Shown here: piece by piece, positions 5,073-5,903 of the stretch
How the letters are laid out: each line of letters opens with the position of its first letter
How positions within the stretch are numbered: the stretch's first letter is position 1
DNA from: an uncultured delta proteobacterium
GTDB taxonomy: Bacteria > Desulfobacterota > Desulfobacteria > Desulfobacterales > JAFDCJ01
Length of the DNA: 64,000 nt
Assembly: GCA_963769935.1 (NCBI GenBank)
Contig: CAVYNY010000011.1
Span: 544,001 to 608,000 of the forward strand
Reading direction: 5' to 3'
Notes under the pieces: generated by a model
Seen by the model: only the letters and a program-made list of their open reading frames with translations
Told to the model about the DNA's origin: nothing
The model's database searches: none
Program-made: the position numbers and the translations under genes

Positions 5073-5903
5073 ATGCGCTGGAAACAATTTTTTACCCGAG
5101 TCGAATCACTCGCTGCGCCCGAGGCTAAAAAGTTTATGGACATGCTGGCCGCGGATCAATTCAATCTTATTGACGTGCGCCAGCCCGGCGAGTACGAATC
5201 CGGTCACATTCCCGGTTCCAAGCTGATCCCGTTGCCGGAGCTAAACCATCGCATCAGTGAAATCGATCCTGAAAAACCGACCGTGGTGTACTGAGCAGTG
5301 GGCGGACGCAGTCGGGTGGCTGCTCAGATGCTGGCCGGTAATGGTTTCAAGGATGTAATCAACATGGCCGGTGGCATAAAAGCCTGGAACAGCAACCAAG
5401 CGATCGGTTCCGAGGACCTTGGACTCCAGCTGTTTACCGGCCGGGAACCTCCCCGGGAAACACTGGTTGTTGCCTATTCTTTGGAGGAAGGATTGAGGGA
5501 GTTTTATGTGTCGATGATCCCTGAGGTAAAAAACGAAAATGCCAGGCAATTGTTTGAAAAGCTGGCGGCCATCGAGTTAAAACATCAGGATCGCATATTT
5601 GCCGAGTACTGCCGAATTACGGGTACCGATGTGAGACGGGATGAATTTGAAAAAGAGGTGGTGGTTCCTGCAATGGAAGGCGGTCTCACAACCGAGCAAT
5701 ACCTGAAGCTTTATCAGCCTGATCTTGAAGTTGTGGAGGAGGTCATCTCGCTCGCCATGGCCATCGAAGCCCAGGCGCTCGATCTATACCAGCGGGCATC
5801 CGAACAAGCCGCATCCGAGGAAAGCAGGGAGACCCTGATGCAGATCGCCAATGAAGAGCGCGCTCATCTGCAGCAGCTGGGCAAGCTGTTCGAAAGGCCT
5901 TAG
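5073..5903 (+). CDS. Rhodanese domain + ferritin/rubrerythrin-like fusion; predicted selenoprotein (TGA 5292-5294 = Sec)
   Basis: IDVRQPGEYESGHIPG ... VVY-TGA-AVGGRS continues in the same frame into ORF 5298; ExxH pairs (ELKH, ERAH); RBS ggagg upstream. Confidence 0.88.
5308..5323 (+). promoter_or_regulatory. Putative bacterial SECIS hairpin
   Basis: gcagtc-gggt-ggctgc stem-loop 13 nt after the in-frame TGA, with a G-rich GGGU loop. Confidence 0.7.

Follow-up and report, generated by a model that had tools for sequence, protein, structure and literature searches.

The window (the whole stretch of 64,000 nt that was analysed) contains on its forward strand a gene of 276 codons at positions 5073..5903, preceded by an RBS-like GGAGG (5064..5068, + strand) 4 nt 5' of the ATG. 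Its single reading frame holds one internal stop, a TGA at 5292-5294 within VVY*AVGGRS, which is predicted to encode selenocysteine 74. The 276-aa product, U74 included, joins a rhodanese domain (residues 18-107; 5124..5393; PF00581, E 2.8e-22) to a ferritin-like four-helix domain (residues 129-272; 5457..5888; PF02915 (Rubrerythrin), E 2.3e-10, and fold matches). The full extent of the gene is based on the reading frame, the Pfam assignments and full-length Cys homologues (274-291 aa, identity up to 82%). A predicted bacterial SECIS lies at 5305..5325 (+ strand). The next gene (5929..7041, + strand) starts 25 nt after the stop of the fusion gene and encodes a 370-aa, NDH-2-like FAD oxidoreductase; this partner flavoprotein is an addition to the preliminary description of the locus. 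As that description had pointed out, ORF calling splits the fusion gene: table 11 yields two ORFs of 73 and 201 aa, with the frame otherwise unbroken. The 73-aa piece is stored as a protein in NCBI, JGI and ENA, and the ESM Atlas contains a cluster of ~200-aa C-terminal pieces. A promoter/terminator scan gave 6 and 5 sites, against 3.3 and 4.3 in shuffles.

The rhodanese domain aligns with BpPRF, 3tp9, Npsr and GlpE. The catalytic Cys/Sec heads a six-residue active-site loop (U-A-V-G-G-R), as in catalytic single-domain rhodaneses, and sulfurtransferase activity is predicted. The TGA had been placed exactly on the catalytic Cys position, and the alignment agrees: the residue-74 column (read from a Cys homologue) coincides with C314 of BpPRF, where 5ve3 has VCRAGGRS and 5ve4, an entry titled 'rhodanese domain inactivating mutation', has VSRAGGRS with Ser at the catalytic Cys. 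None of the NCBIfam models reached its cut-off against the whole fusion. A model of the full-length protein (pLDDT 77, pTM 0.73, with pLDDT under 50 in the linker 101-120) returned only rhodanese matches in Foldseek.

The fusion occurs very commonly and roughly every second member has the Cys form, a feature that the preliminary description did not contain. Of 3164 near-length protein matches, the top 120 span the full length at 66-82% identity, each with Cys at column 74, which is to be expected when gene callers split the TGA forms. At the DNA level the fusion is present in 111/301 sampled genomes of the order and in 103/401 of the phylum. We examined 137 loci, 136 of which cover the column (70 TGA, 47 TGC and 19 TGT). 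Without six duplicates and a distant paralogue from the same genome, and with the window gene included, these represent 129 distinct genes, 67 with TGA and 62 with Cys, and no other codon class at the column. A further 26 loci of the phylum (30 returned, four already counted) comprise 11 TGA and 15 Cys genes, and 77 of 80 metagenome loci, which were not de-duplicated against the genomes, give 52 TGA and 25 Cys; none of these matches contains a further stop. Neither TAA nor TAG was found at the catalytic column among the genome or metagenome loci covering it; two phylum matches contain a TAG or TAA somewhere in the match. The Cys/TGA pairing that the preliminary description proposed to look for among homologues is therefore present in all three sets. 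A FastTree phylogeny of 125 full-length rows requires at least 20 changes between the TGA and Cys states, the direction of which is not given since the tree is unrooted. The hosts are largely Desulfobacterota (in the ESM Atlas, Thermodesulfobacteriota are commonest), and a plasmid search gave two records, both matching the rhodanese part only. The genome under study also encodes a second full-length rhodanese/ferritin-like paralogue (G000:C22:371635-372429; L048, L194), which has 31% identity, a Cys (YCDNGGRS) and no adjoining flavoprotein.

Logan contigs from three studies (runs X1, X2 and X3) retain the TGA; these are assembled contigs and not raw reads, and the source sample could be X1 or X2. 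The X1 contig spans 5166-5419 with 0 differences from the window, the X2 contig spans 5050-5888 with 6 differences and the X3 contig 5059-6086 with 24, none of them at the TGA. The check that had been proposed for raw reads thus came out in favour of the TGA at contig level. For 18 TGA-TGA pairs, dN/dS is 0.11 before and 0.14 after the TGA, and no conserved restart codon was found 3' of it in the TGA genes. That the TGA is a true stop (of a pseudogene or between two genes) or a sequencing error is hardly credible: the assembly has many errors and databases hold the 73-aa product and the C-terminal pieces as proteins, but termination here would sever the active-site loop, TGA appears repeatedly over the tree in a column without TAA or TAG, purifying selection persists past it, which speaks against a true stop, and the independent contigs keep it, the assembly errors seen being single-base insertions. 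From the sequence we consider it almost certain that the TGA is read as selenocysteine at the rhodanese catalytic position by the predicted Sec decoding.

The hairpin reported 13 nt downstream of the TGA has the letters described (GCAGTC at 5308-5313, loop GGGT at 5314-5317, GGCTGC at 5318-5323). Its bacterial SECIS geometry was likewise recovered with the published model and consensus, taken from the available part of PMC13188914: in our own version of this model the hairpin passes with loop GGGT, beginning 19 nt from the UGA, and -9.6 kcal/mol. By itself the hairpin is only modestly better than chance and is weak evidence. Folded alone (22 nt) it reaches -9.9 kcal/mol (z -2.03, 9/200 shuffles as good), its 51-nt context has a z of -0.57, and the model is also passed by 69/1446 TGA ends of long ORFs and 133/1500 Cys codons of this genome. 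In the family, 63/67 TGA genes pass the generic SECIS test, as do 37/61 Cys genes; the peptide GGRSRVAA is predisposed to form a SECIS-like stem. The downstream stem is nevertheless maintained in TGA genes through synonymous codon choice. An intact five-pair stem core is found in 54/67 TGA vs 8/62 Cys genes. For the stem-closing Ala codon, GCT is used in 59/67 vs 11/60, whereas it makes up ~14% elsewhere in the TGA genes. With criteria fixed beforehand, held-out metagenome loci give 48/52 TGA vs 9/25 Cys for the stem core and 49/52 vs 9/25 for the GCT codon. Across 13 independent pairs on the tree, the stem follows the TGA in ~7 and does the opposite in 0 (median p 0.016). Folding energy differs between TGA and Cys genes in a 22-nt window and is alike in a 30-nt window. 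The 26-locus phylum set shows no separation, either by the same-register stem (3/11 TGA vs 3/15 Cys) or by the generic test (10/11 vs 11/15). Seven of its eight TGA genes without the same-register stem fold a shifted-register stem that passes the generic test. Such TGA genes beyond the order (L207, L209, L218, L220, L221, L222 and L224) have the stem GAGCCG.../...CGGCTC within that peptide, as though the SECIS had been rebuilt.

The genome encodes tRNA-Sec (selC), selB, two selD genes, each containing one TGA, and a selA in pieces. The selA gene (G000:C22:678107-679262) carries three single-base insertions (L002 positions 1509, 1775 and 1821); the extra bases are absent from the covering contigs of runs X1-X4, and the selA frameshifts are therefore assembly errors. 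All four genes whose presence the preliminary description had made a check on its reading are thus accounted for. Given errors of this kind, the other broken genes of the window need not be real breaks. The statement that these other breaks are indels stands for positions 1-14000, the region covered here, in which three split genes (1073-2000, 2023-3366 and 7055-8414) each continue in overlapping frames. The last encodes a class III aminotransferase; the first two we take to be carbamate-kinase-like and GTPase-like, respectively. All three splits are most likely assembly errors of the selA kind.

The second domain has predicted di-iron ligands in E138, E168/H171, E232 and E262/H265, together with conserved Y145, Y239 and E202. 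Each of these residues occurs in 63/63 full-length TGA genes; of the 61 Cys genes, 59-61 have it. The domain model is a four-helix bundle (pLDDT 86.7), and this model, the PF02915 match and the full ligand set bear out the earlier assignment of an ExxH four-helix domain. With a modelled four-helix bundle and two E/ExxH sets, the domain has the predicted hallmarks of the ferritin-like di-iron carboxylate superfamily. Structure comparison tied mini-bacterioferritin, Dps, bacterioferritin, COG1633 and uncharacterised ferritin-like proteins at Z 15-16 (best match Z 16.1, rmsd 2.9, 130 aligned), where helical bundles score high by their arrangement; the tie does not single out peroxidase activity. 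In Foldseek, no match to the domain model reached E 0.001. The nearest solved proteins by sequence, 2fzf and TM1526, are both uncharacterised. A rubredoxin domain (C-terminal CxxC...CxxC) is absent, the protein ending after helix 4, and Ala235 is found in 61/63 TGA genes at what we take to be the site of rubrerythrin's extra glutamate (E-x-x-E). The protein is therefore not a classical rubrerythrin. The classical rubrerythrin model NF045767 matches 7/111 domain sequences (best E 3.7e-5), below the family score.

The best solved relatives of the partner flavoprotein are NDH-2 enzymes (E 3e-29 to 1e-24), and its best NCBIfam model is TIGR03169 'Nterm_to_SelD' (238.5 bits vs a cut-off of 310, E 1.4e-70). 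It is a single-copy gene in this genome, with a second GGGPxxxE motif and a single invariant Cys, C282, in the GGGDC FAD motif. The gene lies directly downstream of the fusion in 75/83 loci (44 TGA, 31 Cys) at >=48% identity, counting loci with 500 nt of flank or more; the 48% threshold was set once the data were known. At the more distant loci it is directly downstream in 0/38 and upstream in five. Outside the order, it is present in 29/80 genomes with the fusion vs 6/80 without (Fisher p 1.5e-5, overstated by kinship). The former were drawn from 95 by dropping the 11 weakest and four others, mostly the least complete, and the latter, mostly complete, were picked from genomes without a match. 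By their coordinates, the two genes adjoin in 18 of these 29 genomes, the partner being downstream in seven and upstream in 11, so that adjacency is kept in either gene order. The coupling of fusion and flavoprotein is thus well supported, and the pairing is not obligatory, since the partner was not found in 51/80 fusion genomes nor directly downstream at any of the 38 distant loci. Sequence distances of the two proteins correlate (rho 0.71), as expected from shared descent. The X3 contig, which comes from an RNA library, spans both genes and does not demonstrate a single transcript. A weak search for natural fusions of the two proteins gave 26 longer proteins; its two long matches (P0122 and P0123) are likely frameshift read-throughs and were rejected because their text looks out-of-frame before the end of the di-iron domain.

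Redox-stress genes recur around the fusion, namely stand-alone erythrin-like (11 loci), TrxC (7), rubrerythrin-type (4), MsrAB (4), peroxiredoxin (3) and cytochrome bd (3) genes, in counts that are small, partly from kin and without a background control. The erythrin-like gene, ending in GYPEVW or GFPEVW, is divergent and sits just upstream of the fusion, mostly at TGA loci (L102, L108, L117, L121, L131, L134, L138, L146, L149 and L150). Distant members have other neighbours in place of the flavoprotein, either glycosyltransferases of TIGR04282/TIGR04283 ('arsenosugar biosynthesis') or a membrane gene that is sterol-desaturase-like (L160, L161, L166, L169, L143, L192; L154, L156-L159, L165, L171, L173, L181).

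Several known systems resemble parts of this pair. Rubrerythrin/erythrin-type di-iron proteins (PF02915; TM1526 1vjx, Pfu 2fzf, COG1633 2oh3 and the N-terminal domain of MbfA) share the four-helix bundle, the E...ExxH...E...ExxH pattern and two conserved tyrosines, whereas the fusion lacks a rubredoxin domain, has an invariant Glu in an MEGG loop (E202) and is joined to a rhodanese. It also has Ala where rubrerythrin has the extra Glu, and it falls far below the family cut-offs of both rubrerythrin and MbfA. The persulfide dioxygenase-rhodanese fusions (BpPRF 5ve3; 3tp9; CstB) likewise combine a rhodanese of similar active-site loop with a non-heme-iron domain, but the domain here is ferritin-like and di-iron rather than a mono-iron metallo-beta-lactamase, the domain order is reversed and the catalytic residue is a predicted Sec. 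In Npsr and the CoADR-rhodaneses the flavin domain has an N-terminal redox Cys. These proteins (3nta, 3icr, 8a56; Pcar_0429 in the available part of PMC3543383) also pair a rhodanese domain with an FAD/NAD(P)H oxidoreductase, whereas here two genes are involved, the flavoprotein is NDH-2-like without a conserved N-terminal redox Cys, and there is a di-iron domain in addition. To the TIGR03169 flavoproteins and Ndh-SelD fusions the partner gene is clearly related, but it scores below the cut-off, stands alone and is paired with a rhodanese fusion instead of SelD.

Sec-rhodaneses are reported from Deltaproteobacteria in the available parts of PMC1976440 and PMC8318568, in line with the preliminary description, and five forms are catalogued in those of PMC13188914 and PMC9312934. 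By motif alone, the fusion could correspond to form 2 of the catalogue, or to form 4, both being UxxG, as is U-A-V-G here; it shares with them PF00581 and, by prediction, Sec at the catalytic position (representatives MBM9537886.1 for form 2 and MCY3690685.1 for form 4, in the accessible portion of PMC13188914). Forms 3 and 5, with the motifs CxU or UxxxxU, do not apply: the fusion scores 31 bits on NF041203 (form 3, cut-off 115) and 18.6 on NF045694 (form 5, TsoB, cut-off 805). The words ferritin and rubrerythrin have 0 occurrences in the available text of PMC13188914 and PMC9312934. A literature search, with most subscription journals outside its reach, found no description of a rhodanese-ferritin/rubrerythrin fusion, and nothing on it appears in the accessible parts of PMC8346489, PMC1794560, PMC3543383, PMC5029168, PMC2702500, PMC1976440 or PMC8318568, including one supplement of the last. 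Table S3 of PMC2702500 (31 selenoproteins), which lies beyond the accessible part, could list the fusion gene. The Cys-form architecture is already visible in automatic protein names. The Sec recoding is of a known kind and would not surprise a specialist; the fusion is possibly a form already listed, with a second domain and a partner of which the literature searched gives no description. With about half of the examined copies having TGA and this copy stored as a 73-aa protein, a common predicted selenoprotein has been hidden. The many natural Sec/Cys switches in one scaffold offer a clean system for what selenium adds to a rhodanese.

As to function, we tentatively favour, short of calling it probable, a redox-defence module fed by NAD(P)H, a reading built on family knowledge and the gene pairing. 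Its first step, the insertion of Sec74 by SelB acting on the hairpin, is almost certain; the reservation applies to the steps that follow. The NDH-2-like flavoprotein would pass electrons from NAD(P)H to the di-iron centre and thereby replace the rubredoxin domain missing from the fusion, and the diferrous centre would reduce peroxide (or O2/NO), by analogy with rubrerythrin-type proteins. Sec74 could act as a sulfur carrier, taking up sulfane sulfur as a Se-S adduct like the Cys of single-domain rhodaneses. One module might in this way handle both the reactive sulfur and the reactive oxygen species that arise when a sulfide-rich anaerobe meets oxygen. The redox-stress neighbours, modest and uncontrolled as their counts are, lean toward this redox-defence reading.

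A possible, rather doubtful view is that the pair forms an undescribed enzyme system, found in relatives of sulfate reducers, in which one chain chemically couples a Sec sulfur carrier to a di-iron centre. It would act either as a non-MBL persulfide/peroxide oxidoreductase driven by NAD(P)H or as a single protein donating both iron and sulfur for Fe-S repair, and would receive its electrons from a flavoprotein of the Ndh-SelD type whose acceptor is so far not known. The conserved partner offers a testable electron acceptor for an unexplained flavoprotein family fused to SelD.

The TIGR03169 score of the partner also suits a role in selenium handling, in which the flavoprotein would reduce selenite or Se(0), the rhodanese residue would carry selenide to SelD and the di-iron domain would be a redox buffer; the domains most often fused to SelD are NADH-dehydrogenase-like (PMC4561486 and PMC2398784, in the parts available). 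We regard this as unlikely. Genomes with the fusion do have selB (103/110 and 79/80) and selD (78/80), but the selB background in the same phylum sample is 372/401, so that the co-occurrence is uninformative, and with the fusion in only 103 of these 401 genomes it is missing from the majority of Sec users. A scan of 90 recurrent-neighbour ORFs, out of 133 clusters, turned up no sel gene, and a supply protein that itself needs Sec would be awkward, though SelD here also has a TGA.

Iron could instead be supplied for Fe-S repair, as it is by RIC/YtfE: the di-iron domain would give iron, a Sec/Cys persulfide would give sulfur and electrons of the flavoprotein would release both. This would place a potential iron donor and sulfur donor in one chain, and Rrf2-family regulator (5 loci), cysteine-desulfurase-like (3) and DsrE2-like (4) genes recur nearby, but such neighbours are rare and come for the most part from kindred genomes, the fold is of the ferritin type and the matches listed include no YtfE entry; we judge the proposal improbable. 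A persulfide oxidase, with sulfane sulfur gathered by the rhodanese and then oxidised at the di-iron centre by O2 or H2O2, would be a convergent analogue of the persulfide dioxygenase-rhodanese fusions. The best solved relatives of the rhodanese include 3tp9 and BpPRF 5ve3, with a similar C-x-x-G-G-R loop, and the pTM of the full-length model is compatible with a defined domain arrangement. We give this oxidase little credence, since the metal domain is PF02915 and not of the metallo-beta-lactamase fold, the linker is modelled at low confidence, the largely Desulfobacterota hosts are anaerobes, and the flavoprotein, its sole invariant Cys lying in GGGDC, lacks the characteristic Cys pair of sulfide:quinone reductase.

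Two further features were noted beside the locus. Between ~8900 and 14000 the window contains a minus-strand rRNA operon with tRNA-Ile and tRNA-Ala (about 12100-12336), and the ORFs listed there are shadows. Outside the window, a tRNA-Pyl (CUA) is found at G000:C11:285724-287498 beside trimethylamine-methyltransferase/corrinoid-like ORFs and next to an ORF that, by its motif, we take to resemble the N-terminus of PylS. The genome probably uses both Sec and Pyl, a combination reported for other Deltaproteobacteria.
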